DNA of 64,000 nucleotides from an uncultured Chloroflexia bacterium (GTDB taxonomy: Bacteria; Chloroflexota; Limnocylindria; Limnocylindrales; CSP1-4). This document shows, in pieces, positions 12,971 through 64,000 of the stretch. Location of the stretch: contig CAWGVH010000004.1 of NCBI GenBank assembly GCA_963825995.1, positions 182,483 through 246,482 of the forward strand, in the 5' to 3' direction. Numbering within the stretch: position 1 is the first letter of the stretch; each line of letters opens with the position of its first letter. Under the pieces are notes generated by a model. That model searched no databases. It had not been told where the DNA came from and saw nothing but the letters and a program-made list of their open reading frames with translations. A program made the translations under genes and the position numbers.

Positions 12971-14568
12971 CTAGGCACCTGCGCCGGCAGCCGCGTCTTC
13001 CTCGTGGAACACGAGCCGAAGCCTCTCTTCTGCCTCCTTCCCAGGGAAGAAGAAGTATGTGAGCGCGCCGCCGAAGACGACAGCCGCCAGTCCCGCGATG
13101 TAGGCCAGCTGGTCGCCCTCGAGGAACGAGGACTCGGCTGCGGCCATGATCTCGTCCGCGTACTGCGGGTTGGCGGCCGCGAGATCCGCCGCGCTCGCAT
13201 AGGAAAGCTGCAGCTGACTCTGCGTCGTGGCGCTCACGTCCTGGCCTGAATCGGCGATAGCCGTGCCCATGGCTGCCGCGTAGCCGGCCGTCAGGAGTGC
13301 ACCGAAGATCGAGGTCATGATCGCGCCGCCGAGGTCGCGCTGCAGGTCCGCAGTGCCGGAGGCCATGCCCACGCGCCTCACCGGCACCGATCCGGTGAGC
13401 GAGTTGGACGAGGGCGTCCCGGCGAGGCCCACGCCGATGCCCATGAGCCCCAAGGGGATGGCGACGATCCAGTAGGGCGTGCTCTCTCCCCAAAGGAAGA
13501 ACATGGCGATGAAGGCCAGGCCCAGGATGGACTGGCCCAACAGGAGGGTCGCCCGCGAGCCGCGCTCCTGCACGAGCCTGGCCGACCGGGGCGCCACGAG
13601 CACCATGAAGATGACGGCCGGCAGGATGGCCGCGCCGGCTTGAAGCGTGTCGTAGCCGAGCACGTTCTGGAGATACTGCTGGTTGATGAACGCGATACCC
13701 ATCAACGAGCCGAACACGATGATGCCCGCCACGGCCGCGACCCAGAAGGTCGCTCGCGAAGCCACCTTCAGGTCATAGAGCGGATCGGCTGCCCGCCGCT
13801 GGCGGACGACGAAGAGGACGAGGACCAGGGCCGCGGCCGCCAGCAGACCCAGGGCCAGGGCCTGCATGTTGGGCACCGTGATGAAGTTGAGTGCGATGAT
13901 CAACGCGCCGATCATGACCGCCGAGAGGACGCCGCCGATGTTGTCGACCGGTGCGGTGGCCTCGTTGACGTGCGCGGGGACGTGGCGCCAGGCCATGTAG
14001 AGCGCCACGAGCGCCAGCGGGATGGTGACCAGGAAGACAGAGCCCCACGCGAAGTGCTCGAGCAGGAAGCCGGCGATGAGCGGGCCGAGCATGGCCGTGC
14101 CGCCACCCAGGGCGGACCAGGCGGCGATGGCCCGCGTGCGTGCGGGACCCGCTGCCCAGAGCGCCGTGATGAGCGCCAGTGTCGTGGGATAGGCAAGGCC
14201 GGCCGACAGGCCGCCCACGACACGCGCGCCGAAGAGCACCGTGTCCGATGGTGCGAAACCGGCCACCAGCGACGCCGGCACTGCCAACAGCATGCCCAGG
14301 ACGATCATCATCTTGCGGCCGTAGCGGTCGCCGAGGGCCCCGAACCACAGGACGGATGCGGCCAGGCCGAGCGAGTAGCCCACGGCGATGAGGTCGAGCA
14401 TCGTTGGGACGAGTCGAACGACTTGCCGATCGAAGGCAGCGCCACGTTGGCGACCGAGAGGTTCAGATTCGCAACGGCCGCCACCAGGATGAGCGAACCC
14501 AGGACGATCTTGGCGTGAGGCGGGGCGCCACTGGCGGCGTCCGCCGGGCCGGTCTTCGCAGCTGCCAA
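12971..14568 (-). pseudogene. DHA2 (EmrB/QacA-type) MFS transporter with a frame break near the N-terminus (pseudogene or sequencing indel)
   Basis: Main ORF 12971..14401 starts inside TM2 (MLDLIAVGYSLGLAAS..GDRYGRK). The missing TM1 (KIVLGSLILVAAVANLNLSVANVALPSIGKSFDSSQ) is encoded in another frame at 14404-14568, behind GGAGAG-N5-TTG. One base appears to be missing around 14400-14408. Confidence 0.7.
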
Positions 14569-14627
14569 CTCATCTCTCCATCGGTCATGGGCAGGCCGGC
14601 CCCTGCCGGCGTACCGTCCGTCGTGGG

Positions 14628-17812: not shown

Positions 17813-18352
17813 CTAGCTGGTGGCGATGGCGTCCTTGGCGGCGGCCGCCTCGCGGTCGATCTCCTGCGCGAGCTGCTTGTCGACGGCCTGGGAGACGATC
17901 TTGTCCGCCTTGGCGAGGGCCTTCTCGACCTCGACGACGGCGGTGTCCTCGGCGAAGACGATGAGGGCGGTCGTGCCGGGAGCCACGATGCCGGCCAGCT
18001 CATCGGAGAGCTTGGAGCGGTGCGACAGGTTGCGCACCTTGCCCATGACCGAGCCGATGACACCGACCCCGACGGCGCCCGCCAGGATGCTGGGCGGGAA
18101 GATGACACCCAGCACCACGCCACCGACGATGCCCCACTTGAGACCCGTCTTGGTGCTGTGGTCGGTGACCTTGCCGAGATGGATCTTGCCGTCCGGGTCA
18201 GCGCTGGCGATGACGACGGCGTCGATGCGCAGGCTGGTGGCCGCCTCGAGCTGCTCGATCTCGACGTAGGTGGCCTCGGCCGCCTCGGCCGTGGCGAACT
18301 GCCCGGCGATGAGGTAGTAGGCGCCATCGGTCACCAGGCCGATGCCCTCCAC
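17813..18352 (-). CDS. DUF1269-family membrane protein
   Basis: 179 aa from the GTG at 18352. Central Gly-rich TM pair GLKWGIVGGVVLGVIFPPSILAGAVGVGVIGSVMG flanked by soluble halves. Paralogous to the N-terminus of the downstream sulfatase. Confidence 0.7.
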   Translation of the reverse strand: MEGIGLVTDGAYYLIAGQFATAEAAEATYVEIEQLEAATSLRIDAVVIASADPDGKIHLGKVTDHSTKTGLKWGIVGGVVLGVIFPPSILAGAVGVGVIGSVMGKVRNLSHRSKLSDELAGIVAPGTTALIVFAEDTAVVEVEKALAKADKIVSQAVDKQLAQEIDREAAAAKDAIATS

Positions 18353-18356
18353 CGGC

Positions 18357-18425
18357 TCACTCGGCGGGCGTGCTGACGACTTCAGCGGACGGTGTCTCGG
18401 CCGGAACGTTGGTCGGTTCGGTCAT
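18357..18425 (-). other. 22-codon upstream ORF with strong SD, ending 4 nt before the DUF1269 GTG (coupled leader ORF or frameshifted true N-terminus)
   Basis: AAGGAG-N9-ATG, then MTEPTNVPAETPSAEVVSTPAE-TGA. Deleting one base near the TGA would fuse it in frame to VEGIGLV... Confidence 0.3.
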
Positions 18426-18612: not shown

Positions 18613-20041
18613 ATGGGCAGGCCACTGCGACTCGATGGCGACGAGCGGCGCGCCATCGCGGCTGGCGCACTCGACGCGCTCGAGCGATTGGCCGGCGTGC
18701 GAGCCTCCGGGGACGTCCACGCGCCCGCTGACGCGTCGCTCCTGGAGCTGGCCCGCACGACGCCTCCGCAGGAGCCGGCCGACCCGGCCGACATCCTCGA
18801 TCGCTTCGTCCGCTTCGCCGCGGCCGGCTGGGACAAGTCCGCGGACGGCATCTTCGCCTACATCCCCAACGGTGCGCTCGACGCCGGGCCCATCGCCGCC
18901 CTGCTGGCGGCCGGCGCCCACACGTTCACCGGCACCTCCTTCGAGGCGCCCGCCATGGTGGCCATGGAGGAGGGCGTGTTGCGCTGGATGGCCGACATGC
19001 TGGGGCTCCCGCCGACGGCCGGCGGCCTGCTGCTCTCCGGCGGCTCGCTGGCCAACCAGACGGCCATCGTGACGGCTCGCGCACGGGCGAGGGCCCGCGA
19101 TGGGCAGCAGGCCGACGACGTCCTCACGATGTACGTCTCCGAGCACGTCCATCACTCGGTGACCAAGGCCGCCTCGCTGGTCGGTCTCGCGAGCCGAGCG
19201 GTCCGCACCGTTGCCACCGACGACAGCGGCCGCGTCGACGCCGAGGCACTGCGCCAGATCGTCGAGGCGGACGTGCAGGCGGGACGACGGCCATTCCTGG
19301 TGGTGGGCGTGGCCGGCACCACGGACACCGGCAGCATCGATCCGCTGGAGGACCTGGCGGACGTGGCCCAGGGTACCGGCGCCTGGTTCCACGTCGACGC
19401 CGCCTACGGCGGCTTCTTCGCCCTCACGGAGCGTGGCCGGCGGCGGCTGCACGGCATCCAACGAGCCGACTCGGTGACCGTCGACGCTCACAAGGGCCTC
19501 TTCCTGCCCTACGGCGTGGGCGCCGTCCTGGTGCGCGACCCGCAGCGATCTGGTCGCCGCTCACGAGGGCGCAGGCGCCTACTTCCGGGCCATCCCGACG
19601 ATCGAGGAGCTCCCCCACTACTGCCAGCGCGGCCCGGAGCTGACACGGCCGACACGCGGGCCCCTCCTCTGGTTCCCGCTGCACTTGCACGGCACGGCAG
19701 CCTTCGCCGCTGAGCTCGATCGCATGCTCGACCTGGCCGCCCTGGCCCACCGGCGGCTGACCGCCATGCCGGGCATCGTGGTGGGGCCGGCACCCGAGCT
19801 CTCCATCGTGGCCTTCCGGGCAGCGGCGGGCGATGAGGCCACGGACGACATGGTGACCGCCCTCCACGCCACCGGACGCTTCCAGGTCTCGACCACGACG
19901 CTCGACGGGCGGGCCACCATCCGCTTCGCGTTCCTCAGCCCGCGGACGACGGAGGCACGGGTCGCGGAAGCGCTGGACGTCGTCGAGGAGGTGGCCGTTC
20001 GCGCCCCGCCATGGATCGCCAGGCGCCAGACCACTCGATGA
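18613..20041 (+). pseudogene. group II PLP-dependent amino-acid decarboxylase with a frame break (pseudogene or sequencing indel)
   Basis: ORF 18613..19713 carries SGGSLANQTAI and the PLP-lysine block SVTVDAHKGLFLPYG, then degenerates after VLVRDPQ. The C-terminal domain continues in another frame (LVAAHEGAGAYFRAIP..ELTRPTRGPLLWFPLHLHG..., ending at 20041). The break is at about 19546-19552. Confidence 0.75.
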
Positions 20042-20051
20042 TGTGCCATGA

Positions 20052-20363
20052 CGACCCGGATTCTCCGAATCCCGGCTCATCGGCGCGCCGTTGCAGGAGC
20101 GTCCCGACCTCGTGGCCCGGGCCGACCCGTGCCGCCGGGCGACCGCTGAGGCACCCCCGTTCTTGATCATGCACGGTACGCGCGATCGTTGGGTGCCCTT
20201 CGGCCAGAGTGAGGCGCTGGCGACGCGGCTGCGGGAACTGGGCGTGGCCGTGGTCCGGCCCATCGAGGGCGCCGACCATGTCTTCCTCGACGATCGGCGA
20301 GGACCGCAGCTCGTCGACGAGGTGGTGGCTTTCCTGGTCCGCACGCTGCATCCCGGCAGCTGA
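20052..20363 (+). pseudogene. 5'-truncated alpha/beta-hydrolase (S9/esterase-like) remnant
   Basis: Only the last ~100 codons are present (LIGAPLQERPDLVARADP..PPFLIMHGTRDRWVP..GADHVF). The catalytic Asp and His regions are there but the GxSxG nucleophile part is absent. An in-frame stop lies at 20049-20051, directly after the decarboxylase gene end. Confidence 0.6.
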
Positions 20364-25897: not shown

Positions 25898-26905
25898 TCA
25901 GGCGGGGGCTTCCGAGGGTGCCGCGAAGCCCTGGCGCTCGTAATGCACGCGTCGCGGCCTGGTGGTGTCCTTGTAGATGAACCAGCGGCAGGGACGGTCA
26001 GGCAGGTCGCAATCCTCGAGCGGGCGCAAGGGCGGCTGGCCCTCGACCATCTGGAGATACTCCAGAGCGATCATCGAGTGGATGCTGTACCAGCTCATGC
26101 CAGTGCGGCCCTGGGTCCAGGGATGGGGCTCCCGGTTGGTGGCTGAGGGGTGCGGCGGGCGCCCGCTGTCGGGATCGCCACGGCGCAGGACGCCGCAGCT
26201 GCCGCAGGGGTCCAGGGACATCACAAATCGATCGCCCTCGTCGCTGACCCCCACGTCGCCGCGCTTGCGAGGGCCGGACAGGTGCCCGCCGCGCATGCCT
26301 TCCACGCTGAGCTGCAGGCGCAGCTCAGGGGTCATGGCCCCCCAGAGCGCGTAGCGCGGCTTCCAGATGTGCTCGTAGGCGAGGGTCACCGACTCCAGGA
26401 TGGCGTCCTCGCCGAAGGCCTGCGCGATCTCAGCCTGCACCTCGCAGATCCAGACCACGAGGCCGTCGTGCTGGGCCGCCCAGCGCACGCGCATGAGCTC
26501 CATGGCGGCGACAGCAGCGGGGCCGTCACCGGCCGCCAGGGCCTGCCTGGCCCGCTCCAGGTCGCCTGCCCCGGGCTGGAAGCGACGGTACCCGGAGAGC
26601 AGCTTGTCGCCAAGGCCGTCCTCCGTGGCACCTGCCCGCCCCAGGCGGTAGTCGAGGATGTCAGTGAGCCACACGAAGAGGACGTCGTTCATGATCGCGA
26701 TCTCGCGGCTGAAGTACTCGACGAGCTCGAGCGCCAGGTTCCAGCGACCCTCCTCGATGGCGACCTCGGCCCACGTCTGCGTGCTCGTCCCGAGCGTCTC
26801 CAGGCCGTCCTGGCGGAGCGGCCGTCCAAGGATGTCGCTGTGGCGGATGGGGCTGACCGGCCAGCCATCCGGCCGGATGTCCGGGATGCTCATCGAGGCC
26901 CTCAT
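25898..26905 (-). CDS. hypothetical protein with Cys4 cluster, co-transcribed with the MetE-like gene
   Basis: 335-aa ORF ending 48 nt upstream of the MetE-like start. Motifs LDPCGSCG and EDCDLPDRPCRW. No family recognised. Confidence 0.6.
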   Translation of the reverse strand: MRASMSIPDIRPDGWPVSPIRHSDILGRPLRQDGLETLGTSTQTWAEVAIEEGRWNLALELVEYFSREIAIMNDVLFVWLTDILDYRLGRAGATEDGLGDKLLSGYRRFQPGAGDLERARQALAAGDGPAAVAAMELMRVRWAAQHDGLVVWICEVQAEIAQAFGEDAILESVTLAYEHIWKPRYALWGAMTPELRLQLSVEGMRGGHLSGPRKRGDVGVSDEGDRFVMSLDPCGSCGVLRRGDPDSGRPPHPSATNREPHPWTQGRTGMSWYSIHSMIALEYLQMVEGQPPLRPLEDCDLPDRPCRWFIYKDTTRPRRVHYERQGFAAPSEAPA

Positions 26906-26965
26906 GCGGCGGGTAGGCTAGGCGCGAACGGGCCGTGAGGCCCCGGCGATGGGAGAGGTGCAGGC

Positions 26966-27729
26966 ATGGACGGTGGCCGCAGCGGATGGGGTCTCGAAGG
27001 CCATGGCGTCATCGTCACGGGTGCAGCCCAGGGCATCGGCGAGGCCACCGCGCGGGCCTTCGCGGACGTGGGTGCCCGCGTCTGCGCGGTCGACCTGCGG
27101 GAGGGACCCGTGCGCGCTGTGGTGGAGTCGCTGCCCGGCGGGCCACACCAGGCGGTGGCCATGGACCTCAACGACCTGGCCGCACATGACGGCCTGGTGC
27201 GTGGCGCCGCCGACGCCCTGGGGGACCTGCGGGCCATCGTCCTCGCCGCGGGCGTCCTGCGGCGCGAGCCGTTCGCCGACGTGACCGAGGAGGCCTGGGA
27301 CTGGCAGCTTGACACCAACCTCAAGGCCACGTTCTTCCTGTCGCGCAGCGTCGGCGAGCACATGCGCCAGGCGGCACGAAGGGCAGCATCTGCACCTTCA
27401 CGTCCATCTCCGCGACGATGGGCGGCGTGAGCTCGGCCCCGGCGTACGCGGCCTCCAAGGGCGGCGTCATCGCGCTCACCTACGCCATGGCGCGGCACTA
27501 CGGCCCCGCCGGCATCCGCGTCAACAGCATCGCGCCCGGCTTCATCGACACGCCCATGCAGCGCGAGGGGTTCTCCACCGCGGCCCAGGCCTACATCGAG
27601 AGCACGCCGCTGGCACGTCAGGCCGATCCGTCCGAGGTCGCCGCGGTGGCGGTCTTCCTGGCCTCCGACCACGCCAGCTTCGTGACGGGCGCCATCATGA
27701 ACGTCAGCGGCGGCGGCTGGATGGGCTGA
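26966..27729 (+). pseudogene. SDR (FabG-like) oxidoreductase with a frame break (pseudogene or sequencing indel)
   Basis: N-terminal ORF 26966..27430 has VIVTGAAQGIGEA. After EHMRQA the frame is lost. The continuation GTKGSICTFTSISATMGGVSSAPAYAASKGG... (YxxxK) runs in the frame of ORF 27418..27729. One base appears to be missing at about 27368-27375. Confidence 0.75.
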
Positions 27730-27737
27730 GGGCACGT

Positions 27738-29093
27738 TCACGCGCCCGATCCGCGCCGCCAGTCATCCACGGCACGCCGAGCCTCCTGCGACGCCTGTCC
27801 GGTGTAGTCGGCAGGCTCGATCTCGGCGGTCCCGTCCAGTCCGGCGGCGACCTCTTCGAGTGCCTCGCGGAGCCCGATGCCACGAGCCTTCGAGGTCGTG
27901 GCCGCCAGGTAGACGAGGTCGTGGGCGCCCTCGCGGCCAAGCTCAGGGGCCAGCTGGAACATGTAGGCCTCAGACAGCGTTCGGCCCTGCTCCATCGCCA
28001 GGTTGGCGGCCATGCGCTCGGGATACACGACGGCTTCGCGCACGACGCGCTCCGCGACCCGCAGGCAGCCGGCGCTGAGCACCGCCACCTGCGGCAGGGC
28101 GTGCCACTCGATCTGCCACTCTCCGGCCGAGCGCTCGTGGCCGGCCTCCATGGCCCGATAGAGGCTGCCCGACATGGCAGCCGCGCTGACGGCCATGCCC
28201 ACGATGACCTCGGAATCGATCGGGTTGGCCTTCTGGGGCATGGTCGACGAGGCTCCCCGGTGATGGCCCTCGGACTCGCTCATCTCCCGGATCTCCGTGC
28301 GCGAGAGGTCGATGACCTCACGCGCCAGCCGCGCACACGTGGACGCGGCACGAGCACACACCGCACCAAGGGCGGCAAGACCGTCGCGAGTGACGTGCCA
28401 GGGACCGTTCGGCACCGCCAGTCCCAGCTGGCGCGCCATCTCGACCCGCACCTCGTCGGCACGCGGACCAAGCCCGGCCGACGTCCCCGCCGCGCCGTGC
28501 AGGCTGACCAGGCAGCAGCCGGCCCTGACCGCGGCAAGGTCAGCGCGCAGCCGGTCGCACTGGCGCAGGAACGTGGCCAGCTTGGCGCCGAATGTCGTGG
28601 GCACCGCCTGCTGGCCATGCGTTCGAGCGGCCATCACGGTGTCGGCATGCCCCTCGACCTGGGCCGCCAGCGCATCGCCGAGCGCTACGGTGAGCTCCAT
28701 GAGGCGGTCGATGGCCGCGTCCAACTGCAGGCTCAGGCCGGTGTCCATGATGTCCTGTGTGGTGGCTCCGTAGTGCAGCGAGCCGCGCTCCGACGCCGGC
28801 AGCCGCTCGGTGATCTGCCGCACGAGCGGCAGGATGGGGTAGCCGACGTTGGCCATGTCAGCCCAGAGCACCGGCAGGTCGACGTTCGCCAGCGTGCAGG
28901 CGGTCGCGATGGCCTCAGCGCGCTCGGGGGAGAGCTCGCCGATCTGGGCCTGCGCTCGCGCCAGCGCAGCCTCCGTCCGCAGCCACGACTCGACGGTGGC
29001 CGACTCCGAGAAGACGGCCTCCATCAGCGGGTCACCGAAGGCCCGGTGGAGGAGCGAGAAGATGGCCCCGGGCGGGGCGTCCGAGCTGTTCAC
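27738..29093 (-). CDS. fumarate-lyase superfamily enzyme, 3-carboxy-cis,cis-muconate cycloisomerase/adenylosuccinate-lyase-like
   Basis: Signature GASSTMPQKANPIDSE, plus HYGATTQDIMDT and TFGAK. GTGA overlap with the upstream Gfo/Idh/MocA stop. Confidence 0.8.
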   Translation of the reverse strand: MNSSDAPPGAIFSLLHRAFGDPLMEAVFSESATVESWLRTEAALARAQAQIGELSPERAEAIATACTLANVDLPVLWADMANVGYPILPLVRQITERLPASERGSLHYGATTQDIMDTGLSLQLDAAIDRLMELTVALGDALAAQVEGHADTVMAARTHGQQAVPTTFGAKLATFLRQCDRLRADLAAVRAGCCLVSLHGAAGTSAGLGPRADEVRVEMARQLGLAVPNGPWHVTRDGLAALGAVCARAASTCARLAREVIDLSRTEIREMSESEGHHRGASSTMPQKANPIDSEVIVGMAVSAAAMSGSLYRAMEAGHERSAGEWQIEWHALPQVAVLSAGCLRVAERVVREAVVYPERMAANLAMEQGRTLSEAYMFQLAPELGREGAHDLVYLAATTSKARGIGLREALEEVAAGLDGTAEIEPADYTGQASQEARRAVDDWRRGSGA

Positions 29094-30175
29094 GTGTCGG
29101 AGCCGAGGATCTCGCTCAGGCGCACGCTCCGCCGCTCCTCGGCCGACCGGTAGGCGGCCTCGCCGATGGCGAGCGTGGGCAGCATCTGGCGACCCGCGGT
29201 GACTGGCTGCCGATCGGTGGCGATGGCGTCCATGAGGTCGCTCATGGGCCCCAGGAAGGCATCCGGCAGCCAGCGCGTGTCGAAGTCGAAGGCCTGCACC
29301 TCGACCCCCTCACGGTAGAGCGATAGCGTGTCGGGTCGGCCGTTGGGGTAGTCGTACATGAGGCCGATGGTCCCCGCCAGCATGCCCGCTGTGCCCAGGA
29401 TGCGGAACTCCGCGTAGGGCGGGCCGTGCTGGTTGTAGTGGTTGGTGGCCACCAGGCCCTGCACGCCGTCGGGATACTCCAGGACCGTCTTGGTGACCGT
29501 CTCGCCGATGACCGGTGCCTGCTCCGGGTAGCGCCCGTGCACGCTCGTGACCCACACCGGATCGCCCAGGATCGAGCGCAGCGCGTCGAGGTAGTGCGTG
29601 CTGTGGATCTTGATGTCCAGGTGGGGCGATTCCGCGATCCAGGCCCAGAGGTGCAGCGGCGTGGAGACGGACACCTGGACCTGCGCCTCGGTCACTGTGC
29701 CCAGCGCCCCCTGGCCCACGAGGTCGCGGGACGCGGCGATGCCGGCATCCCAGCGCATCTGGTGGTTCACCGCGAGCAGGACGCCGGCCGCTTCGGCAGC
29801 CTCGACCTCTGCCACGCCCGTGGCGTAGTCCATGGCCAGCGGCTTCTGGCAGAGCATGTGCTTGCCGGCGCCCGCCACGATGGACACGATCTCCGGCTGC
29901 ACCCATGGCAACACGGCGATGTCGACGATGTCCACGTCTGACCGGCCGGCGAGCTCCTCCGCGGTGCGGGCCACGACCGGGATGGAGAAGTCCACGGCGA
30001 CGGCCCGGGCCTTGGTCTCGTCGATGTCGTACACCGCCGCGACGTGCAGTCCGGCGGCCTGGTAGGCAGGCAGGTGGGCGCCCGTCACGATGCCCCCGCA
30101 ACCGATGATGCCGATGCGCAGGTCGCGCCCGGTGCCGGGCTCGATGCGCCACCGCGGCTCGTAGCGGCTCGCCAT
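29090..30175 (-). CDS. Gfo/Idh/MocA-family NAD(P) sugar/inositol-type dehydrogenase
   Basis: LRIGIIGCGGIVTGAHLPAY Rossmann start, MLCQKPLA motif. Paralog of 37133..38236. Confidence 0.85.
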   Translation of the reverse strand: MASRYEPRWRIEPGTGRDLRIGIIGCGGIVTGAHLPAYQAAGLHVAAVYDIDETKARAVAVDFSIPVVARTAEELAGRSDVDIVDIAVLPWVQPEIVSIVAGAGKHMLCQKPLAMDYATGVAEVEAAEAAGVLLAVNHQMRWDAGIAASRDLVGQGALGTVTEAQVQVSVSTPLHLWAWIAESPHLDIKIHSTHYLDALRSILGDPVWVTSVHGRYPEQAPVIGETVTKTVLEYPDGVQGLVATNHYNQHGPPYAEFRILGTAGMLAGTIGLMYDYPNGRPDTLSLYREGVEVQAFDFDTRWLPDAFLGPMSDLMDAIATDRQPVTAGRQMLPTLAIGEAAYRSAEERRSVRLSEILGSDT

Positions 30176-30178
30176 CGG

Positions 30179-32052: not shown

Positions 32053-32138
32053 GGTTCGACTGCCCCCAGGTGGACGGTAGCGTCAGAGACGTCGAGAGGG
32101 GCCGCACCTGGCGGCACGGCCCCTCTCGTTACGGCCGG

Positions 32139-33516: not shown

Positions 33517-33605
33517 GGTTACCCACTCCTCCTTGTCGGATCAGATGCGCGTGCCGCTCCCTACGGCCCGTCGCTGGACATCAGATCGTTCCGATCATCT
33601 CATCG

Positions 33606-34781: not shown

Positions 34782-34859
34782 CTCCGACCCCCATCGGTCC
34801 TGCCTGGCGTCGCAGGCGGCCTCGGCTGCGCCGCACGGTAGTCGGTCGCGGCCCCCTAA

Positions 34860-44903: not shown

Positions 44904-44948
44904 ATGCTGACCGAGGGGGCACGACCCACCAGGGCCGACGCACCGTGA
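44904..44948 (+). other. 14-codon upstream ORF with strong SD whose TGA overlaps the cysE GTG start (GTGA)
   Basis: GGGAGGA-N4-ATG, then MLTEGARPTRADAP-TGA. The stop at 44946-44948 overlaps the GTG at 44945-44947. Either translational coupling or a frameshifted N-terminus. Confidence 0.3.
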
Positions 44949-50178: not shown

Positions 50179-50895
50179 TCACTGGACCGCCTCGTCGGCC
50201 GGATCGATCGGGCGGCCCACCGAGCGGCGCGCGTCCCAGGCCACCCGGAGGAAGTTGGTGACGTGGGCGAGCGGACGGATGTGGCTGCCCTGATCCGCGT
50301 AGATGGTGGGGATGGGCACCCAGTCGATGGCCAGGCCCGCCCGGATGGCCAGCGTGATCATCTCGACCTCGAACTCGAAGCCGGCCTCCTGGCTCTCGAG
50401 GAGCCGTGGCAGGAGCGGGCAGGCGATGAGGCGGTAGCCCGACTGGTTGTCAGGGATGCGGCGGCCCACGGCCCAGGAGAACGTCCACGTGCCCAGGTTG
50501 TTGGCCAGGCGCCGGCTCAGGGGCATCTGGCTGAAGTCCCGCTGCCCGATGATGAGCGGCGCTTGGCGGCGGCGCCAGGCTTCCAGGAAGGCCGGGATGC
50601 GGGTCGGGTCGTGCTGACCGTCGGCATCGAGCGTGACCACCGCCGTCGAGCCGGCCTCCAACGCTCGCTGGAAGCCGGCGCGCAGCGCGGCACCCTTGCC
50701 CTGGTTGGGCAGCTGGCGCAGGACGTCCGCGCCGGCCGCCTCGGCCACGGCTGCCGTCTCGTCCGTCGAACCATCGTCGACGACGAGCACCGGCAGGTGG
50801 CGGGCGGTCGCCTCCACCACCGCGGTGAGCGTCCGAGCCGCCTGGAAGGCGGGGATGACGGCGACGATGTCGTGCGTGGAGCCAGACACGAGCAC
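50179..50895 (-). CDS. glycosyltransferase family 2 (polyprenyl-phosphate glycosyltransferase-like)
   Basis: VAVIPAF...VLVVDDGSTDET...TLDADGQHDP...NQSGYRL motifs. GTG start 3 nt after the upstream stop. Confidence 0.8.
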   Translation of the reverse strand: MLVSGSTHDIVAVIPAFQAARTLTAVVEATARHLPVLVVDDGSTDETAAVAEAAGADVLRQLPNQGKGAALRAGFQRALEAGSTAVVTLDADGQHDPTRIPAFLEAWRRRQAPLIIGQRDFSQMPLSRRLANNLGTWTFSWAVGRRIPDNQSGYRLIACPLLPRLLESQEAGFEFEVEMITLAIRAGLAIDWVPIPTIYADQGSHIRPLAHVTNFLRVAWDARRSVGRPIDPADEAVQ

Positions 50896-50898: not shown

Positions 50899-52221
50899 CT
50901 ACGTGGCCGCAGCACCCGCCGCGGGCAATGCGGCGAAGCCGCCGACCCGCCAGCGGTCCAGCCAGTCGTCGCCCTCGTCGACGGCCGTGATGACCGCCGC
51001 CGCCTCGGCGGCATCCACCTCGTCCTGCCAGCAGTCCCAGAGCAGCGCGGCGGTCTCCCGCCCTGCGGCGTCCCTGCGGGTGGCGTCCAGCTCTCGACGC
51101 AGGATCTCCAAGCCAGCGGCCACGCCCATGGCGTAGCGCGGCGTCGGTACGCCCTCGGCCAGCCCGAGCCGGATGAGGCCCACGAGCCGGTCATCCCAGC
51201 CAAGCTTGCGACGTGGGTCGCGAGATGCCCGCTCGATGGTGTCGGCGAGGTGCGGGTTGACCATGCGGGCAAGGAGGTCGTCGGCGAAGGCCGCGTAGCC
51301 GTCGGCTGTGAAGAGCGGGTCGCTCCCGGTGAACCGCGCCTGGAGCGTCCGCCCCGACTCCTCCAGGAACGCCGCGCGCAGGAAGGCCATCGCGCCCGGT
51401 ACCTGCTCGAGGTCCGCCACCCGGTCCAGGTCCAGCAGCGTGCCGAGAAAGCCGGCCAGGGCATGGGTGGCGTTGTGTCCCAGCAGCTTGGCGGCCTCGA
51501 AGGGGGCCAGGTCATCCACCTCGCGCAGCACAGGGATGAACGGGTGGAGTGCCCCGCGACCGCCACCCGGATCGACGCGTGAGACGAGGATGCGGTCGAA
51601 GGCCTCGACGAGGAAGGCCTGCGGGAGTCTCGGCGTGATCGTCGTCAGGCCCAGCGCCGCGATCTCGGCGGGGTCATCGATGACTCCGCTCATCTTGCCG
51701 ATGACCGTGTCCACGAAGCACGCACGAGCGATGACGGTGACGCGCTCGGCCGGGTCCAGCACCTCGAGCACGGTCTCCTTGAGTCGGGCCGCCGCCTCGC
51801 GGTGGTTCTCAGCACAGAACACGATGAGGGGGTGCTCAGCGGTACGGCGGCGCAACGCGTCGGCGATGAGTCGGTGCGGGCTCCAGGGCGCGGCGGTGCG
51901 ATAGAGAGCGATGCTGGGCAGGGCCGTGGCCAGCTCGTCGGCGGCAGCGACAGCGCTGACGACGGCGGCCCGTTCCTCCTCCACGGTCGAGTCGGCGATG
52001 GACACCGGACCGATCGCGGCGACCTCGATGCCGTCAGCATGGGCGATGTTGACGACGAAGCGGCCGGCTCCGGCGCGCAGGCCGGCCACCAGGTCGGCCC
52101 GCACGTCCACGACGAGCGGCGGGGCATAGGCACCAGTCCGCTGCGCCTCATAGACGAAGAGGCCGGCCTGGATGGGCCCGAAGCCCAGGCCGACGAAGCG
52201 CCGCGGCCCGCTGAAGGTCAT
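50899..52221 (-). CDS. mannitol-1-phosphate/mannitol dehydrogenase-family oxidoreductase-like protein
   Basis: Trimmed to the ATG at 52221 (4 nt after the upstream stop). FVGLGFGPIQAGLF Rossmann-like start, CAENH, VDTVIGKM, AKLLGHNATHALAGFLG, laid out as in MtlD-type enzymes. Confidence 0.65.
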   Translation of the reverse strand: MTFSGPRRFVGLGFGPIQAGLFVYEAQRTGAYAPPLVVDVRADLVAGLRAGAGRFVVNIAHADGIEVAAIGPVSIADSTVEEERAAVVSAVAAADELATALPSIALYRTAAPWSPHRLIADALRRRTAEHPLIVFCAENHREAAARLKETVLEVLDPAERVTVIARACFVDTVIGKMSGVIDDPAEIAALGLTTITPRLPQAFLVEAFDRILVSRVDPGGGRGALHPFIPVLREVDDLAPFEAAKLLGHNATHALAGFLGTLLDLDRVADLEQVPGAMAFLRAAFLEESGRTLQARFTGSDPLFTADGYAAFADDLLARMVNPHLADTIERASRDPRRKLGWDDRLVGLIRLGLAEGVPTPRYAMGVAAGLEILRRELDATRRDAAGRETAALLWDCWQDEVDAAEAAAVITAVDEGDDWLDRWRVGGFAALPAAGAAAT

Positions 52222-52225
52222 GACC

Positions 52226-53503
52226 TCATCCGGCAGCGAGGTAGCGCCGCTCGTCCTCGCCATCCCAGCGTGGGACCGTGGCGATGGCCTGGCTGCGCCG
52301 ATGGGGGTACACCACGGCCTTGCCGGCTACCTCGTGCTGCCGAGCCATGCGCAGCAGCACGGGGGCATGCTCGAGATCGCCGATGTGTGCGATGTGGGCG
52401 CCCGCGTCGATCTGGGCCTCGGTCATGAGCCGCAGCGTCTCGAGGATGTCCCAGGGACCGCCACCTGACGAGCCCGTGATGTTGACCTCCTGGTAGTGCA
52501 CGAACCGCGCGTCGATGGCGACGTACTCGCTGCCGGGCGCCAGGCCCGCGAAGAGGTCCAGCACGCCGTAGCGCGCCAGGTAGTGCTGTGCGGCTTCGAC
52601 GACCTCGCGGTCGGCGGCGGTGACGATGATGTCGTCGGCGCCATGCCCCATGCTAAGGCGCTCCACGACGGCGGCCAGGTCGGCCTGTGACGTGTCGACG
52701 AGCTCCAGGTGGACGCCCAGCTGCCGGGCGCGCTCGCCGAATGTGCGGCGCAGCCAGTCGAGCCGGTCGTCGCGTCGGGCCGTGGCGATGATGACCCGCG
52801 GTCGGGCAGCGAGGGCGAGGTCGACGTGGATGCGACCCATGGGTCCGGCGCCGATGACGACCGTGATCCCGCCCGTCAGCAGGCCGCTGCTCGCGACGCG
52901 CGGCTGCGTGCGGTCGGGCTGGGTCAGGTGCACGTGATGGGCGTGCGAAGAGATGATGCAGGAGATGGGCTCGGCGATGGCGGCGTGCGCGGCCGGCACG
53001 TCGTCGTCCGGGAGCGGCAGGAGACAGCCGGCAGCCAGCACCTCCTCTCCGATGAGCATGTACTCGGCAAGGAGGCCCGGCAGCGTGTAGCCGACCGCGA
53101 TCTTGGCCACTCCGCGACCATGGTCGCGATAGCGCTCGCGGTGCTGGATGGGGGCGATGTCCACGGCCGGCTGGACCGCCATGCGCATGCCCGGCTCGAA
53201 CTGGCCGCGAAGGCCCGCACCCACCTCCACGAGGGTGACGACACCCTCGTCACCGACGATGACGGGGTGTACGGCCGGGTCCCAGCCGTGCATGAGCGGA
53301 TGCTCAGGGCCCTGATCGAGGAGCTTGTTGACCGACGTGCAGATGCCCGCCGCGTCCACCCGGCAGAGGAGCTGGCCGGGACCCGGTCGCGGCACCGGGA
53401 CCGCGCGCACGACCAAGTGGCCGACGCCCGTGCCATCCAGCACGGCTGCCCGCATCGTGTCCGGGATGGGCTGGCCGGCATCCCCGGGTGAGATCGTGGT
53501 CAT
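52226..53503 (-). CDS. Zn-dependent alcohol/polyol dehydrogenase family (MDR) protein, long form
   Basis: Trimmed to the ATG at 53503 (ATGA overlap with the pfkB stop). MRAAVL..., CRVDAAGICTSV, VIGAGPMG. Confidence 0.75.
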   Translation of the reverse strand: MTTISPGDAGQPIPDTMRAAVLDGTGVGHLVVRAVPVPRPGPGQLLCRVDAAGICTSVNKLLDQGPEHPLMHGWDPAVHPVIVGDEGVVTLVEVGAGLRGQFEPGMRMAVQPAVDIAPIQHRERYRDHGRGVAKIAVGYTLPGLLAEYMLIGEEVLAAGCLLPLPDDDVPAAHAAIAEPISCIISSHAHHVHLTQPDRTQPRVASSGLLTGGITVVIGAGPMGRIHVDLALAARPRVIIATARRDDRLDWLRRTFGERARQLGVHLELVDTSQADLAAVVERLSMGHGADDIIVTAADREVVEAAQHYLARYGVLDLFAGLAPGSEYVAIDARFVHYQEVNITGSSGGGPWDILETLRLMTEAQIDAGAHIAHIGDLEHAPVLLRMARQHEVAGKAVVYPHRRSQAIATVPRWDGEDERRYLAAG

Positions 53504-56331: not shown

Positions 56332-56475
56332 GCGTCGGACTCCTCGTGCTGCCAGTTCTCAGGTCGAGCTCGGCGCCGAGGACCGGGAGAGGTGCGCGGC
56401 CCCACGAGGGTACCCTTGCACGACGGCGTCGAACGGTTTCGAACGGCATCGAGTGGTCAGTACGGGGAGACGAGC

Positions 56476-57345
56476 ATGCTGGTGTACGGCGATTTCACCC
56501 AGGACGAGCAAGTCCTGCTGCGTCGCAGCCTCCTGGCGGCCGCGGTCGCCGTCTCGGCGGCGAGCCCGGGTCGGGAGGAGGAGACGGTCAGCGAAGGCTT
56601 CGCGGCCGCCTCGTTCATCCTCGACCGGCGCGACGACTACGTGCGATTCCCGCTCATCACGTCGGTCATCGCGTGGCTGCAGGAACAAGCCAACGCGGAG
56701 CAGGCCTTCCCTGACTTCGTCAAGGTGGCCAAGGCACCGGATGCGCTTGCCCAAGCCATGGAGACCCTGCGAGGCGTCACCGCCCTACTGGACGTCCGCG
56801 TGGATCCCGCGGAAGCTGCCGCCTACAAGGGCTGGCTGATGAGCATCGCCGTCGAGGTCGCAGGGGCCGGCAAGGAGGATCAGGGCTTCCTGGGCAGGGG
56901 CGGCGTGGCCGTCAACGACAAGGAGCGCCAGGCGCTTGCCGCCATCGCCGGCGCGCTGGGAATGGCATCCGACCCCGACGTGAAGACGGACGCTAGTCCT
57001 CCGGGGCCGCCGGCACCGGTCAGGCTGGAGGTCGCGACGGACTCGCGCCGCGACCTCCGAGATGCTCAGGGCTTGTACTGCCACTCCACGAGCAGGAAGC
57101 AGCCTTCGTCGTCGGTGGCTGTCCTGGCCGCTCCACCGATCGCCGAGCGGCGGGTCGAACTGCAGGGTGTGATCGCCGCCGCTCCCGCAGCGCAGGGCCC
57201 CGGTCTGCTGGGCCCGGATGGCGATGCGGTCACCCTTGTCGACGCTGAAGTTGGTGCCGATCGATTCGACCTGGTAGACGAAGTCGTCCTCGTCTCCGCA
57301 GCCCTGCGGATCGCCCTGGTAGTTGATGACCGGCCCGTTGCGTGA
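56476..57345 (+). CDS. hypothetical protein; 3' end uncertain
   Basis: Protein-like from the ATG at 56476 (MLVYGDFTQDEQVLLRRSLL...) to about AGALGM (~56965). The remaining open frame is low-complexity and overlaps the minus-strand gene 57066..57686 by ~280 nt, so the real stop may be earlier (possible indel). Confidence 0.4.
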   Translation: MLVYGDFTQDEQVLLRRSLLAAAVAVSAASPGREEETVSEGFAAASFILDRRDDYVRFPLITSVIAWLQEQANAEQAFPDFVKVAKAPDALAQAMETLRGVTALLDVRVDPAEAAAYKGWLMSIAVEVAGAGKEDQGFLGRGGVAVNDKERQALAAIAGALGMASDPDVKTDASPPGPPAPVRLEVATDSRRDLRDAQGLYCHSTSRKQPSSSVAVLAAPPIAERRVELQGVIAAAPAAQGPGLLGPDGDAVTLVDAEVGADRFDLVDEVVLVSAALRIALVVDDRPVA

Positions 57346-57686
57346 CGGCGCGGAAGGTGTCCGTGCCGGGCACCTGGCGGACGACCTGCACGCGGAACGT
57401 GCCCGGGGTGCAGGAGATGATGCGCACCTTGCCGATGGTGCCCGCCTTGGGGGCCTTGTGACCACCGGCCGGCCGGCCGTAGGCCTCGTTCATGACCCAC
57501 GTGCAGGTGGGATGCGGGGTCGACGTCGTTGGGTTCGTCACACCACAGCGCCGGCTGCGGCTGTGTGTCGGTGGTGAGCTTGGCTCCGAACCTCACCGGT
57601 GCCGCGCTGGCAGTCAGCGCCAGTGACAGCGCCAGCCAGGCTCCGATGATCGTGGCCAGGACTCCGATCCGAACGCCTCTGAGCAT
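57066..57686 (-). pseudogene. secreted hypothetical protein, three frame breaks
   Basis: Signal peptide MLRGVRIGVLATIIGAWLALSLALTASA plus ..LWCDEPNDVDP in frame 1. TCTWVMNEAYGRPAGGHKAPKAGTIGKVRIISCTPGTFRVQVV..TFRAV in frame 2. RNGPVINYQGDPQGCGDEDDFVYQVESIGTNFSVDKGDRIAIRAQQTGALRCG..FDPPLGDRW in frame 3. The end DDEGCFLLVEWQYKP-stop is back in frame 1. The first break is at the GGGG run at 57516-57519. Confidence 0.6.
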
Positions 57687-58567: not shown

Positions 58568-58580
58568 GTCCTTCCTCCCT

Positions 58581-60026: not shown

Positions 60027-60060
60027 CAACTAACAGAGAGTCATAATGCCTTAGATTATC
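60027..60060 (+). promoter_or_regulatory. local low-GC patch with -10-like hexamers (promoter candidate for 60102 gene)
   Basis: caactaacagagagtCATAATgcctTAGATTatc stands out against the GC-rich background, 40-75 nt upstream of the ATG at 60102. No convincing -35. Confidence 0.2.
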
Positions 60061-60101
60061 GGGCTCCCCCGAGCGACGGACAGACCAGGGAAGGGACACA
60101 C

Positions 60102-60847
60102 ATGGCATCACGACTACGGATCACCGGAGTCGCGCTCATCATCGTCGGCATCGTGGCATTGGTCGCCGCCGGCTACGCCTACATGCAGGTCCAGGGCGGG
60201 CAGGATGCCCTCAAGGGCTTCAGCGCCGCACAGAACGTCGCCCTGACGTACAACGAGGACGGCGACCTCATCGACCGCGGCTCGCCGGAGGAAGCAGCGG
60301 CCATCCTGGCCCTCCTGGAGGACACCTGGCAGTGGCCGGTCAACGAGGGTGACCTGAACCCGAATGACCCGGTCACCAACACCGCGACCGAGTACATGTA
60401 CCAGATGGCCACCATCGCCCACCATACGCTGACCGGAACGCAGACCGTGGTGTTGACCGAGCCTGTCGAGTGGGACGGCGACGGTGACGGCACCGTGGCC
60501 GCCGACGCGCCGACCGTGGCGCCCGGTGAGTGGGATCCTCGACCTCAGGTCAGGACGCCATCTTCCAGGCCGGCGTCTACCAGGTCCCCGTCGCTAACCG
60601 CTACTGGACGGGTTTCAACCGGACGCACCCGCTCGACGGGCCGGCCCGCGAGCAGGCCTGGAACGGCACCGTCCATGGCCTCTTCGCGGAGCTCGGCGTG
60701 GGCGCCACCACGCACTCCAGCCTGCAGCTCGCGCTCGGCGTGGCGGCCGTCACGGCCCTGCTGGGCCTCGGCTTCCTCATCGGCGGGGCCGGCCTCCTCT
60801 GGACCGGCATGGCCAAGAAGCGCGAGGAGACCGCGACCGTCGCCTGA
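60102..60847 (+). pseudogene. bitopic membrane protein (N- and C-terminal TM anchors) with frame break
   Basis: N-part MASRLRITGVALIIVGIVALVAAGYAY...TVAPGEW is in frame 0. After ~60530 that frame becomes Arg/Ser/Pro junk. The continuation SGQDAIFQAGVYQVPVANRYWTGFNRTHPLDGP...LGLGFLIGGAGLLWTGMAKKREE runs in the frame of ORF 60530..60847. Confidence 0.6.
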
Positions 60848-61087: not shown

Positions 61088-62755
61088 GTGGAGTCCCGCG
61101 CCCCTGAAGCCTCCCTAGCCGAGCTCGATCCAGCCCTCGGGCTGCCCCAGCAACGCAAGCTCGAGATCCTGCTCGGCGTCCTGCTGGTGGTCTTCCTCTC
61201 AGCCCTCGACCAGACCATCGTGGGCGTGGCCCTGCCGCGCATCGTGGGCGAGCTGCGTGGGACCAACGAGCTCTACACGTGGGTCATCACCAGCTACCTC
61301 CTGACGGCCACCATCACGGGGGTCTTCTACGGCAAGCTCTCGGACATCTACGGGCGCCGGCTCATGCTGCTCTTCGGTGTCAGCGTCTTCCTGCTGGGCT
61401 CGTTCCTGTGTGCCCTCTCCTGGTCCATGGAGAGCCTCATCCTCTTCCGAGGCATCCAGGGCGTGGGCGCCGGGGCCATCTTCCCGATCTCGCTGGCCAT
61501 CATCGGCGACCTCTACACGCCGCGTGAGCGGGGCCGCTACCAGGGCCTCTTCGGCGCCGTCTTCGGCGCGGCTGCGATCATCGGCCCGCTCCTCGGTGGC
61601 TGGCTCACGGACAACCTGAGCTGGCACTGGATCTTCCTCGTCAACCTGCCCATCGGCGCGGTCACGCTCTACATCATCGGGCGGTACCTGCCCTCGGTCC
61701 ACGGCGAGCCAGCGACCCGCGACCTCGACTACCTGGGCGGGGTGGTGTTCGCGGTCGCCGTCGTCTTCCTGCTGCTGGGTCTCACGAACAAGCAGACGGC
61801 CGAATGGGCCGATGTCTCCGTCGGCGGCTTTCTGCTCGTGGCCGCGCTGCTGACACCGGTCTTCCTGTTCATCGAGTCCAGAGCTGCGGAGCCGATCGTG
61901 CCGCTGGAGCTCTTCCGGAACCGCAACTACTCCGTGACCATCATGGCCACGTTCCTGGCCTCCATCGGCTTCTTCGGGGCGGTCATCTTCCTGCCCCGCT
62001 GGTTCCAGTTCGTGGAGGGCGCCAGTCCGACGGAGTCGGGGCTCCGGATCCTGCCGCTGCTTGCCGGCGTCATCCTCAGCTCCATCGTCTCCGGTGCCCT
62101 CGTCAGTCGCACGGGCAGGTTCAAGTGGGTCGTCACGGGCGCGTTGGCCATCATGTCCGTGGGCATCCTGCTGTTCACGGGCCTGGGTGCGCGCACCGAC
62201 CTGCCCGTGCTGTGGGGCTGGATGTTCGTCGCGGGCCTGGGGGTAGGCCCCACGCTGTCCGTCTTCACCATCGTCATCCAGGCGTCAGTGCCTTTCAGCC
62301 GGCTGGGCGTGGCGACCGGCAATCTCGTGTTCTTTCGTCAGATCGGCGGATCGGTGGGGCTGGCGGTGGTGGGTACGATCTTCGCCGAGTCCTTCGCCTC
62401 CCGGCTGCAGCCCTCGCTCGTGGAGGCGGGCGTGCCGGCTCAGCAGGCGGCTGCCGTGGCGGCCATGTCCGCGTCGGGCGGCGACCTGACCCAGGTCGGA
62501 GGCGTGAGCCTGCCCGACCAGCTGGCGCAGGTGCCAGCCCTGCAGGGCATCGTCGACCAGGTCGTGGCCGGTATCTACCAGGCCTTCTCGTTGGCCATCG
62601 GTGACACCTTCTGGCTCGGCCTCGCGGCGACCCTGGTGGCGCTCGTGGTCGTGACCATCGGCCTTCGAGACGTGCCGCTCCTCGGCCGAGGCGAGGTCGG
62701 TGGACCGAGTGATGAGCTCGCGGGAGACGTCCTGCCCACGGCCTTCGCCGGCTAG
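61088..62755 (+). CDS. DHA2-family (EmrB/QacA, 14-TM) MFS efflux transporter
   Basis: LDQTIVGVALPRI, GKLSDIYGRRLML, LFRGIQGVGAGAIFP motifs. About 14 TM segments. Confidence 0.85.
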   Translation: MESRAPEASLAELDPALGLPQQRKLEILLGVLLVVFLSALDQTIVGVALPRIVGELRGTNELYTWVITSYLLTATITGVFYGKLSDIYGRRLMLLFGVSVFLLGSFLCALSWSMESLILFRGIQGVGAGAIFPISLAIIGDLYTPRERGRYQGLFGAVFGAAAIIGPLLGGWLTDNLSWHWIFLVNLPIGAVTLYIIGRYLPSVHGEPATRDLDYLGGVVFAVAVVFLLLGLTNKQTAEWADVSVGGFLLVAALLTPVFLFIESRAAEPIVPLELFRNRNYSVTIMATFLASIGFFGAVIFLPRWFQFVEGASPTESGLRILPLLAGVILSSIVSGALVSRTGRFKWVVTGALAIMSVGILLFTGLGARTDLPVLWGWMFVAGLGVGPTLSVFTIVIQASVPFSRLGVATGNLVFFRQIGGSVGLAVVGTIFAESFASRLQPSLVEAGVPAQQAAAVAAMSASGGDLTQVGGVSLPDQLAQVPALQGIVDQVVAGIYQAFSLAIGDTFWLGLAATLVALVVVTIGLRDVPLLGRGEVGGPSDELAGDVLPTAFAG

Positions 62756-63460: not shown

Positions 63461-63533
63461 AGGTCGCGGCGTCCTGGCACGAACGAGGCGAGCGCCAACG
63501 GCGATGCGCTCCGCCTTGCCGGTCATGGTGTGC

Positions 63534-64000
63534 TCAGGGCTCGAGCAGGACCTTGCCCCGGGCGGCTTCTGTGGGCGCTGCAAGGGCGTCGAGCGCGGCC
63601 TCGAACTGGTCGAGCCGGAACCGGTGGGTGACCACGGGCTGCAGGTCGAGGCGGCCGACGTTGAGGAGCGCCACGACCTGTGCCCAGGCGCCGGCTGTGT
63701 AGCCGAAGCTGCCGCGGAGCCGGAGGTCGTTGTTGACGATGTCGTCGGGGCTCAGCGGGACCGTCTTGCCGTGCCCGCAGATCCCGAGCAGCAGGACCTG
63801 GCCGCCACGTCGGGCCGCTTCGAGCGCGCTGCCGACGGCCGTGATGGTTCCAGCCGCCTCGATGGCCACATCGAAGGACCGAGGCTCGGGAGGGTCCACC
63901 GAGTACTCGTCCGCCCCCATCGCGTACGCCAGCTCACCCTGTGCGGCGCGGCGACCCGTCACCGTGACCCGCGCCGGCGACCACAGCCGGACGAGGTGCG
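63534..64000 (-). CDS. Zn-dependent alcohol dehydrogenase (MDR) family, C-terminal part; 5' end outside window
   Basis: The frame stays open past the track start at 63962 to the window edge. C-terminal domain blocks FDVAIEAAG, GGQVLLLG, VVTHRFRLDQFEAALDAL. The expected GxGxxG segment between VTVTG and MGADEY is not seen. Confidence 0.7.
   Translation of the reverse strand, partial: HLVRLWSPARVTVTGRRAAQGELAYAMGADEYSVDPPEPRSFDVAIEAAGTITAVGSALEAARRGGQVLLLGICGHGKTVPLSPDDIVNNDLRLRGSFGYTAGAWAQVVALLNVGRLDLQPVVTHRFRLDQFEAALDALAAPTEAARGKVLLEP

Follow-up and report, generated by a model that had tools for sequence, protein, structure and literature searches.

One-base frame breaks in a 64-kb window of a Limnocylindrales metagenome-assembled genome: very probable consensus errors of long-read assembly

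The window, that is, the whole stretch of 64 kb that was analysed, lies on contig C4 of a Chloroflexota (Ca. Limnocylindrales) metagenome-assembled genome (MAG) of 2.67 Mb in 7 contigs, with 70% G+C and a completeness score of 86%. Ten of its roughly 55 genes are interrupted by one-base indels. Breaks were called by alignment against up to eight genomes of the same genus, from frame switches of protein matches together with DNA alignments. The nearest relative to hand is approximately 88–92% identical, and the many-contig MAG G004 served as a reference at 87–95% identity. The broken genes, with the ambiguous sites and a gene at the window edge, are as follows.

12971–14565, minus strand: MFS_1 (DHA2-like) transporter (Pfam MFS_1 on the orthologue); one-base deletion between 14404 and 14405
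17813–18425, minus strand: DUF1269-family gene (Pfam DUF1269); one-base insertion at 18359
18613–20041, plus strand: PLP-dependent decarboxylase (Pfam Pyridoxal_deC); one-base insertion at ~19543–19545
19984–20363, plus strand: deletion junction (~19984–20008) and 5'-truncated hydrolase; one-base deletion after 20063
26966–27729, plus strand: short-chain dehydrogenase (SDR; Pfam adh_short_C2); one-base deletion between 27372 and 27373
32139–33540, minus strand: ABC substrate-binding protein (SBP_bac_1); four one-base insertions, at 32509–32511 (AAA), 32948–32950 (GGG), ~33342 and 33374
33606–34781, minus strand: Amidohydrolase_2 lactonase and L-rhamnose mutarotase; one-base insertion at 33953
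38941–40127, plus strand: URO-D-family gene (Pfam URO-D); one extra base at ~38965–38972
44904–44948, plus strand: ambiguous N-terminus; 10 nt fewer than in G038, within a short repeat
56392–57345, plus strand: gene with a variable tail; orthologues end near 57018; ambiguous
57066–57686, minus strand: secreted Cys-containing 205-aa protein; three one-base insertions, at 57145, 57340 and 57516–57519 (GGGG)
60045–60847, plus strand: membrane protein; one-base deletion between 60536 and 60537 (GGGAT-CCTC)
63537–64000, minus strand: C-terminal 154 codons of a Zn-dependent alcohol dehydrogenase; the gene continues to window coordinate 64580

The original prediction placed single breaks in the MFS transporter (14400–14408), the PLP decarboxylase (19546–19552) and the SDR gene (27368–27375), and each of them has one private one-base indel at or near that position. 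Five intact orthologues of the MFS transporter match in two frames, the N-terminal ~45–55 aa in frame −2 and the remainder in frame −1, and one base is missing in the DNA alignment. Three orthologues of the decarboxylase go from frame +1 to +2 at 19542–19547, in agreement with the DNA alignment. Three intact SDR orthologues (267–271 aa) go from frame +2 to +1, with a one-base gap in the DNA alignment, and the out-of-frame C-terminal piece retains 92–95% identity. For the membrane protein, in which a break had been expected within 60102–60847, five orthologues go from frame +3 to +2 at 60539 and the DNA alignment agrees.

The ABC substrate-binding protein was expected to have three or more breaks. 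Intact orthologues of 464–506 aa from G004, G005 and G001 match it in four frame segments, and the DNA alignments agree with the four insertions. The three breaks expected in the secreted protein correspond to three insertions relative to the single intact 205-aa ORF of G049 and G038; coverage by G004 is limited to the third site, where the extra G is absent. No Pfam family match was found for this protein. The break expected at the 3' end of the lactonase (~33935–33945) is an extra base in GTACAG[C]GG, absent from all five references. It fuses the lactonase with the rhamnose mutarotase into a false 391-aa ORF: the two are separate genes in G004, G001 and G009, and the reference sequences read as a GTGA stop/start overlap. 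In the DUF1269 gene, the first ~22 codons are out of frame through an extra A in CGGCTC[A]CTCGG, which is absent from both orthologues (G004 and G038); this accounts for the N-terminus at 18357–18425, previously regarded as ambiguous. The break in the URO-D-family gene had been missed. Its extra base leads to a stop 15 codons past the conserved ATG, and three references have MSMFSTYG... and one base fewer at this position.

Two other cases regarded as ambiguous remain so. At 44904–44948, the ATG at 44904 runs into a stop, and the GTG at 44945 is a possible alternative start; this site rests on one reference (G038) and was left out of the firm count. The ORF at 56392–57345 has an 18-nt in-frame insertion; beyond it the tail diverges, lacks a stop and aligns unreliably, and the ORF extends ~107 codons into the convergent gene. 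The Zn-dependent alcohol dehydrogenase, thought to lack its GxGxxG segment, is intact: it has 348 aa in a single frame with 94% identity to G047, and its GAGTLG motif is at ~64028, approximately 28 nt past the window end. Further candidates were rejected. Those at 2939, ~10150, ~26900, ~35900 and ~59900 were intergenic on inspection, those at 4967, 42916 and 52994 are shifts belonging to G038, and that at 59244 is a difference of G004 near the start codon. The same-frame ORFs at 50179–50895 and 50899–52263 might have been a nonsense-split gene; G038 also has two separate genes there.

The firm count in the 64 kb is 15 one-base indels (11 insertions, 4 deletions). Nearly all of them lie at positions given in the original prediction, which was right that the sequence contains many frame disruptions. 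Every one of them is private, with two to five same-genus references per site opposing this genome, and G004 sides against this genome at each firm site within its coverage. The frameshifts are not accompanied by nonsense mutations or small multi-base deletions, and the out-of-frame pieces still have 82–95% identity to orthologues. Approximately 15 kb of the window (41–56 kb) is clean, and the 969-aa sulfatase has no break.

Between indel-prone assembly and gene decay, decay of dispensable genes had been preferred, and it is this preference that the data do not support. Real recent pseudogenisation would mean that dispensable transport, secreted and catabolic functions were lost by frameshift. 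It might seem attractive, since most of the broken window genes are accessory (MFS transporter, substrate-binding protein, secreted protein, SDR, lactonase), three to four hits fall in each of two genes, and the genome, at 2.67 Mb, is below the 3–4 Mb of most members of its genus. However, frameshifts free of nonsense mutations and small multi-base deletions are not what this model predicts. Furthermore, no one-base break is common to any relative covering the site, although very recent events would escape at ~88–92% identity; conservation in sister strains, which would have spoken against assembly error, was thus not observed. In the substrate-binding protein, the one broken gene covered by a test of relaxed selection, dN/dS against G004 is 0.23 and dS is 0.36, not raised over the intact neighbours (dN/dS 0.09–0.30, dS 0.27–0.35), whereas a gene would have to be a pseudogene for long to gather four neutral indels independently.

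The same type of private one-base indel is found in single-copy genes on contig C3. This genome has one rpoC locus (1517 aa), with one extra G at C3:216964 (GAGATC[G]ACC) that none of the eight other genomes in the alignment has; one of these is G004, 94% identical over 800 nt. rpoB (1174 aa) is split by a private one-base indel at C3:213263–213274. The gcvPA gene and a fabF paralogue are likewise split, and gyrA, secA and ileS have no breaks, which means that the errors are patchy. The breaks in rpoB and rpoC strongly disfavour pseudogenisation, and that in gcvPA further indicates that the lesions are not confined to dispensable genes. Clustering in short genes, with the long genes intact, had been taken as a sign of decay; this does not hold, because rpoB and rpoC are long, and genes with three or four hits each are also found outside the window.

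A private one-base indel occurs approximately once per 6–10 kb of aligned coding DNA on every contig tested. This conservative estimate is based on chained tblastn hits against G038, polarised by coding potential: 11 shifts per 66 kb on C4, 16 per 155 kb on C3 and 6 per 39 kb on C6. It should be mentioned that the polarisation leans on one main reference, G038, which itself has errors (11 shifts per 254 kb). Contigs of G007 were left out because they had too few orthologues. A blastn count of non-3n gaps against G038 was dropped as too noisy at ~80% identity, with hundreds of compensated gap pairs, mostly intergenic. An unpolarised reciprocal search (MAG ORFs against G038) returned the same sites in mirror image and was not usable as it stood, because out-of-frame ORFs stay open at 70% G+C. 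The density in the window is far above that of a correct genome, yet usual for this genome; it had been called unusual, which the rates on C3 and C6 contradict. The genome-wide comparison suggested as a check on the two explanations thus gives similar rates on the three contigs, which argues against local decay.

Some real gene loss does seem to have occurred here, as the truncated hydrolase lies beside a large deletion. The remnant at 20008–20363, correctly recognised in the original prediction as 5'-truncated, comprises only residues ~199–317 of a 317-aa BD-FAE/alpha-beta hydrolase and has the one-base deletion in addition. In G038 the decarboxylase and hydrolase genes are 8.8 kb apart, with ~7 genes in between, among them those of a sugar ABC transporter; G004 is arranged like G038, and no match to the G038 segment was found anywhere in this genome. 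Compared with G038 and G004, this strain has probably undergone a real deletion, an assembly mis-join being the alternative. Such a deletion would have taken out the cluster for the sugar ABC transporter together with the 5' two thirds of the hydrolase gene. Decay would be expected to remove parts of genes, and this was found for the hydrolase remnant only. Taking the evidence on both sides, we consider pseudogenisation as the cause of the frame breaks very unlikely.

The frequency of such breaks in the genus follows the type of assembly. Of 29 MAGs with at most 60 contigs, 11 have an rpoC that is frame-broken within a contig; among the 14 MAGs with at least 120 contigs there is none (Fisher p = 0.008). 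Contig number is only a proxy for the sequencing platform. The rpoC breaks differ between MAGs where they were compared, G043 and G050 being broken at different nearby sites, and the relatives G009, G049 and G054 have their own, different frameshifts. Several few-contig relatives of 3–4 Mb have completeness values of only 57–70%. Among the few-contig genomes, G038, G049, G050, G009 and G008 are MAGs of Microflora Danica (names of the form MFD*.bin), which were assembled from Nanopore reads only, with Flye in nano-hq mode and one round of Medaka, and without short-read polishing (PMC12313526). Nanopore bins under ~40-fold coverage still require short-read polishing, and indels produce frameshifted gene calls (PMC9262707, Sereika et al. 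2022). From its 7 contigs and these relatives, the present MAG is most likely also a Nanopore-only assembly made with Flye and one Medaka round.

At each firm site, in the window and in rpoC, two to eight same-genus genomes agree against this genome. The indels are private, they affect essential genes, their density is similar on C3, C4 and C6, and their frequency follows assembly type. These comparisons make it very probable that the organism itself does not have these mutations and that the frame breaks arose as errors in the consensus of a long-read metagenome assembly. The affected genes should be treated as intact; what was found is ordinary and not a real biological feature.

The sequence context suggests how the errors might have arisen. 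Among 33 precisely placed events, there are 26 insertions and 7 deletions (p = 0.0013). Of the 17 non-homopolymer insertions, 15 touch the third codon position and 12 directly follow it (p = 0.002). The four further window sites follow the pattern without exception, three lying between positions 3 and 1 and one between 2 and 3. The insertion excess and the codon-phase bias also speak against pseudogenisation. Bacterial mutation is usually deletion-biased. Homopolymer runs (AAA, GGG, GGGG, CCC) account for approximately one quarter of the sites, and none is long. The coincidence of breaks with homopolymers, noted before as typical of sequencing indels, is therefore real at AAA (32509–32511) and GGGG (57516–57519), but homopolymers explain a minority of the sites.

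Most errors are insertions right after the third base of a codon, and two different bases often stand where relatives have one, as in the codons GAT GAC becoming GATCGAC. Allele doubling is therefore suggested: where strains differ, mostly at synonymous sites, the consensus or polisher might have written both alleles side by side. Such doubling at polymorphic sites would account for the clustering in a few genes, and a smaller share of errors would be short-homopolymer miscounts. This mechanism is proposed from codon phase and base pairs. The predominance of non-homopolymer insertions at third codon positions points to strain mixture, not to the classical homopolymer miscount.

A possible but less likely source, under which the indels would still be artefacts, is a basecalling or polishing error tied to a motif such as a methylated GATC/TCGA site. 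Of the 33 indels, 11 have a GATC no more than 4 nt away, compared with 3.2% of random positions (p = 4e-9), and TCGAT and ATCGA are enriched 13–19 times; methylation-induced Nanopore errors are documented (PMC11610573, PMC11610603). On the other hand, the inserted base itself often creates the GATC where relatives read GAT-GA, so that the motif may be a consequence and not the cause. A signal-level error would not be expected to produce the codon-phase bias, unless through codon-linked sequence context. In addition, a search of this genome (86% complete) for a Dam-type methylase gene, limited to the D12 class, found none.

Real breaks might also be bypassed by programmed ribosomal frameshifting or transcriptional slippage. 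The downstream pieces are well conserved, which is not specific to recoding, and the three +1 insertions in the secreted-protein gene bring back the original frame at its end. The contexts of the shift sites, however, are diverse, with no common slippery motif or long homopolymer among them; the orthologues, including the 94%-identical rpoC, are uninterrupted at the same place, and the sites differ in each few-contig MAG. This is the least probable explanation of all. We give scarcely more credence to a bolder idea, that the indels are real in the population DNA and hundreds of them, even in rpoB and rpoC, are tolerated by site-specific recoding at GATCGA-like sites, or, in a milder form, that artefactual insertions mark true strain polymorphisms and map microdiversity hot spots.

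If the frame breaks are consensus errors, this species-representative MAG would contain a few hundred false frameshifts, extrapolated from the sampled rate. These would inflate pseudogene counts, make false fusions such as lactonase-mutarotase, truncate transporters and enzymes in annotation, and depress completeness estimates. Claims of gene decay or genome reduction for this Limnocylindrales lineage from such assemblies would be wrong. The finding matters as a warning only; codon phase and insertion bias may nevertheless aid the read-free recognition of consensus errors from strain mixtures.

Reductive genome evolution with accumulation of pseudogenes is known from Mycobacterium leprae and recent insect symbionts. 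The present genome resembles these in its many frameshifted genes and in being smaller than its relatives. It differs from them in that the hits include essential single-copy genes, the lesions are found in one assembly only, nonsense mutations and a raised dN/dS are absent, and the bias is toward insertions instead of deletions. With methylation-induced Nanopore errors it shares a short palindromic motif (GATC/TCGA) enriched at the sites. Those errors are described as base errors and strand-specific mismatches (PMC11610573, PMC11610603), whereas indels are found here; moreover, the motif often stems from the inserted base and no Dam-type methylase was found. Indels of Nanopore-only assemblies and MAGs (PMC9262707, PMC12313526) are unlike the present ones in that only about one quarter of the sites here are homopolymeric and most are non-homopolymer insertions at third positions. 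In other respects the two are alike: one-base indels occur genome-wide, including in essential genes, marker-gene completeness is lowered (86% here), and the many-contig MAGs of the genus are free of breaks.

Frame breaks in the window were located with a codon-usage frame plot trained on the genome under study, G000; ORF lists were not relied on, because at 70% G+C long ORFs arise in many frames. The plot showed frame switches on the same strand at the places named in the original prediction. ORFs from orthologous loci of relatives were compared with the window by tblastn, followed by DNA alignment around each junction. The predicted breaks were thereby largely borne out: 15 one-base indels, all private to G000, were firmly placed, a count that leaves out 44904-44948 and the 3' end of 56392-57345, both graded ambiguous. 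Several further candidates were dropped, being either intergenic or due to a shift in G038, the few-contig main reference, itself.

Firm one-base indels in the window
14404/5, deletion, MFS transporter
18359, insertion, DUF1269 protein
about 19543, insertion, PLP decarboxylase
after 20063, deletion, hydrolase remnant
27372/3, deletion, SDR
32509-32511, insertion, ABC substrate-binding protein
32948-32950, insertion, ABC substrate-binding protein
about 33342, insertion, ABC substrate-binding protein
33374, insertion, ABC substrate-binding protein
33953, insertion, lactonase
about 38965-38972, insertion, URO-D-family gene (absent from the original prediction)
57145, insertion, secreted 205-aa protein
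57340, insertion, secreted 205-aa protein
57516-57519, insertion, secreted 205-aa protein
60536/7, deletion, membrane protein

The substrate-binding protein, for which three or more breaks had been predicted, shows four aligned insertions, and the secreted protein the expected three. The gene names proposed from the sequence agree with the Pfam matches of the intact orthologues. The Zn-ADH thought to lack its GxGxxG segment is intact: only its last 154 codons are in the window, and GAGTLG lies just past the edge. A 391-aa lactonase-mutarotase "fusion" ORF results from the insertion at 33953; in the aligned reference sequences the stop codon of the lactonase and the GTG start of the mutarotase overlap (GTGA), and the two genes form separate ORFs in the relatives G004, G001, and G009.

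Three of the broken genes (SDR, substrate-binding protein, lactonase) share one stretch (26900-34800) with a rhamnose mutarotase and two permeases, and together they look like a single deoxy-sugar (rhamnose/fucose-type) uptake and catabolism cluster. Its gene order is conserved in G004, G001, G005, G009, and G038. A perfect palindrome, GTCAACCGGTTGAC, occurs at 35900-35913 between divergent genes; it is conserved in both G038 and G001, and may be an operator of the adjoining sugar-catabolism genes. An intergenic stretch at 10120-10205 contains repeats of a unit some 25-32 nt long (CCTGATGTSGGCTGACCCCGAAGCG), whose copy number differs from that in G038.

The predicted 5'-truncation of the hydrolase was confirmed, since only residues 199-317 remain, with the junction at about 19984-20008. 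In G038, 8.8 kb with about seven genes, a sugar ABC transporter among them, separates the PLP decarboxylase from the hydrolase, and G004 has the same arrangement. A search of G000 with these 8.8 kb gave no match for any of this DNA. This is most simply an ordinary strain-level deletion and is probably real, although an assembly mis-join at the junction may have produced it instead.

Real pseudogenisation of dispensable functions had been the preferred reading of the breaks. We consider this very improbable. Projected onto the reading frame of G004, a many-contig MAG, the four-times-broken substrate-binding-protein gene gave a dN/dS of 0.23 (dS 0.36), comparable to that of five intact neighbours (0.09-0.30; dS 0.27-0.35). 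The out-of-frame pieces are still 82-95% identical to their orthologues. Furthermore, apart from the 8.8-kb deletion, the firm lesions in the window are one-base indels only; nonsense mutations and small multi-base deletions were not observed.

The rate across the genome also argues against decay. Against 565 kb of G038, counting a shift only if both flanking matches fall in a well-coding part of the reference ORF, G000 showed 11 shifts per 66 kb on its contig C4, where the window spans 182483-246482, 16 per 155 kb on C3, and 6 per 39 kb on C6; 11 per 254 kb belonged to G038 itself. The window is thus not special, and clusters of several shifts within about 1 kb also occur on C3 and C6. The broken genes include rpoB, rpoC, and gcvPA (names from NCBIfam). 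rpoB is split at C3:213263-213274, with one private inserted base at C3:213272 in GAGATCGATAG. The only rpoC locus, within the rpoB-rpoC stretch C3:212391-220495 outside the window, is interrupted after residue 322, where one additional G stands at C3:216964 (GAGATC[G]ACC, in GAGATCGACC). This G is absent from all eight other genomes aligned, including G004 (94% identical over 800 nt). One of three fabF paralogues, the third copy at C6:380015-381245, is split at about 380535-380539, and the two tandem copies (C6:128006-130594) are intact. The errors are patchy, as gyrA, secA, and ileS of G000 were clean when checked for breaks. With private indels on C3, C4, and C6, essential genes included, indel-prone assembly, originally the second choice, is upheld: the frame breaks are, with high confidence, a long-read assembly artefact, biologically ordinary apart from the deletion.

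Among 33 precisely placed events there were 26 insertions and 7 deletions (p = 0.0013), and about a quarter extended short homopolymers. Twelve of 17 non-homopolymer insertions directly follow the last base of a codon (p = 0.002 against an expectation of one third), 15 of the 17 adjoin a third position, and seven place a C after a third-position T. Four more window sites lie at the junction of codon positions 3 and 1 (three) or 2 and 3 (one), with none off the pattern. This codon phase fits strain variants: both variants of a strain difference might be written side by side in the consensus, which would account for the clustering as well as for the surplus of insertions. A basecalling bias tied to a particular motif is the alternative cause, and a rather unlikely one. 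Eleven of the 33 sites have a GATC within 4 nt, compared with 3.2% of random positions; often, however, it is the inserted base that makes the motif, because relatives read GAT-GA, and a D12 Dam methylase gene was looked for in G000 and not found.

Relatives carry frameshifts of their own. Four occur in about 20 kb of G009 (loci L007-L010) in genes intact in G000. The 555-aa gene matching window 61088-62755 is broken in G049 (L039) and the 969-aa sulfatase in G054 (L021), both being intact in G000, and G038 (contig C17) is shifted opposite window 4967, 42916, and 52994. In G043 and G050, rpoC is broken at other, nearby positions. Same-genus genomes are of two kinds, with hundreds of contigs or with 3-60; within-contig rpoC breaks, a count leaving out splits at contig ends, were found in 11 of 29 MAGs with at most 60 contigs and in 0 of 14 with at least 120 (Fisher p = 0.008). 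Completeness is only 57-70% for several 3-4 Mb MAGs of the genus with few contigs (10-30), which fits frameshift-broken marker genes rather than absent DNA. Nanopore consensus indels lead to frameshifted gene calls, and polishing with short reads is needed for bins with less than about 40-fold coverage (PMC9262707). G038, G049, G050, G009, and G008 are few-contig Microflora Danica MAGs, which were assembled from Nanopore reads only, by Flye (nano-hq) with one Medaka round and without short-read polishing (PMC12313526). For G000 (7 contigs, 2.67 Mb, completeness score 86.5%), we infer a platform of the same Nanopore type.
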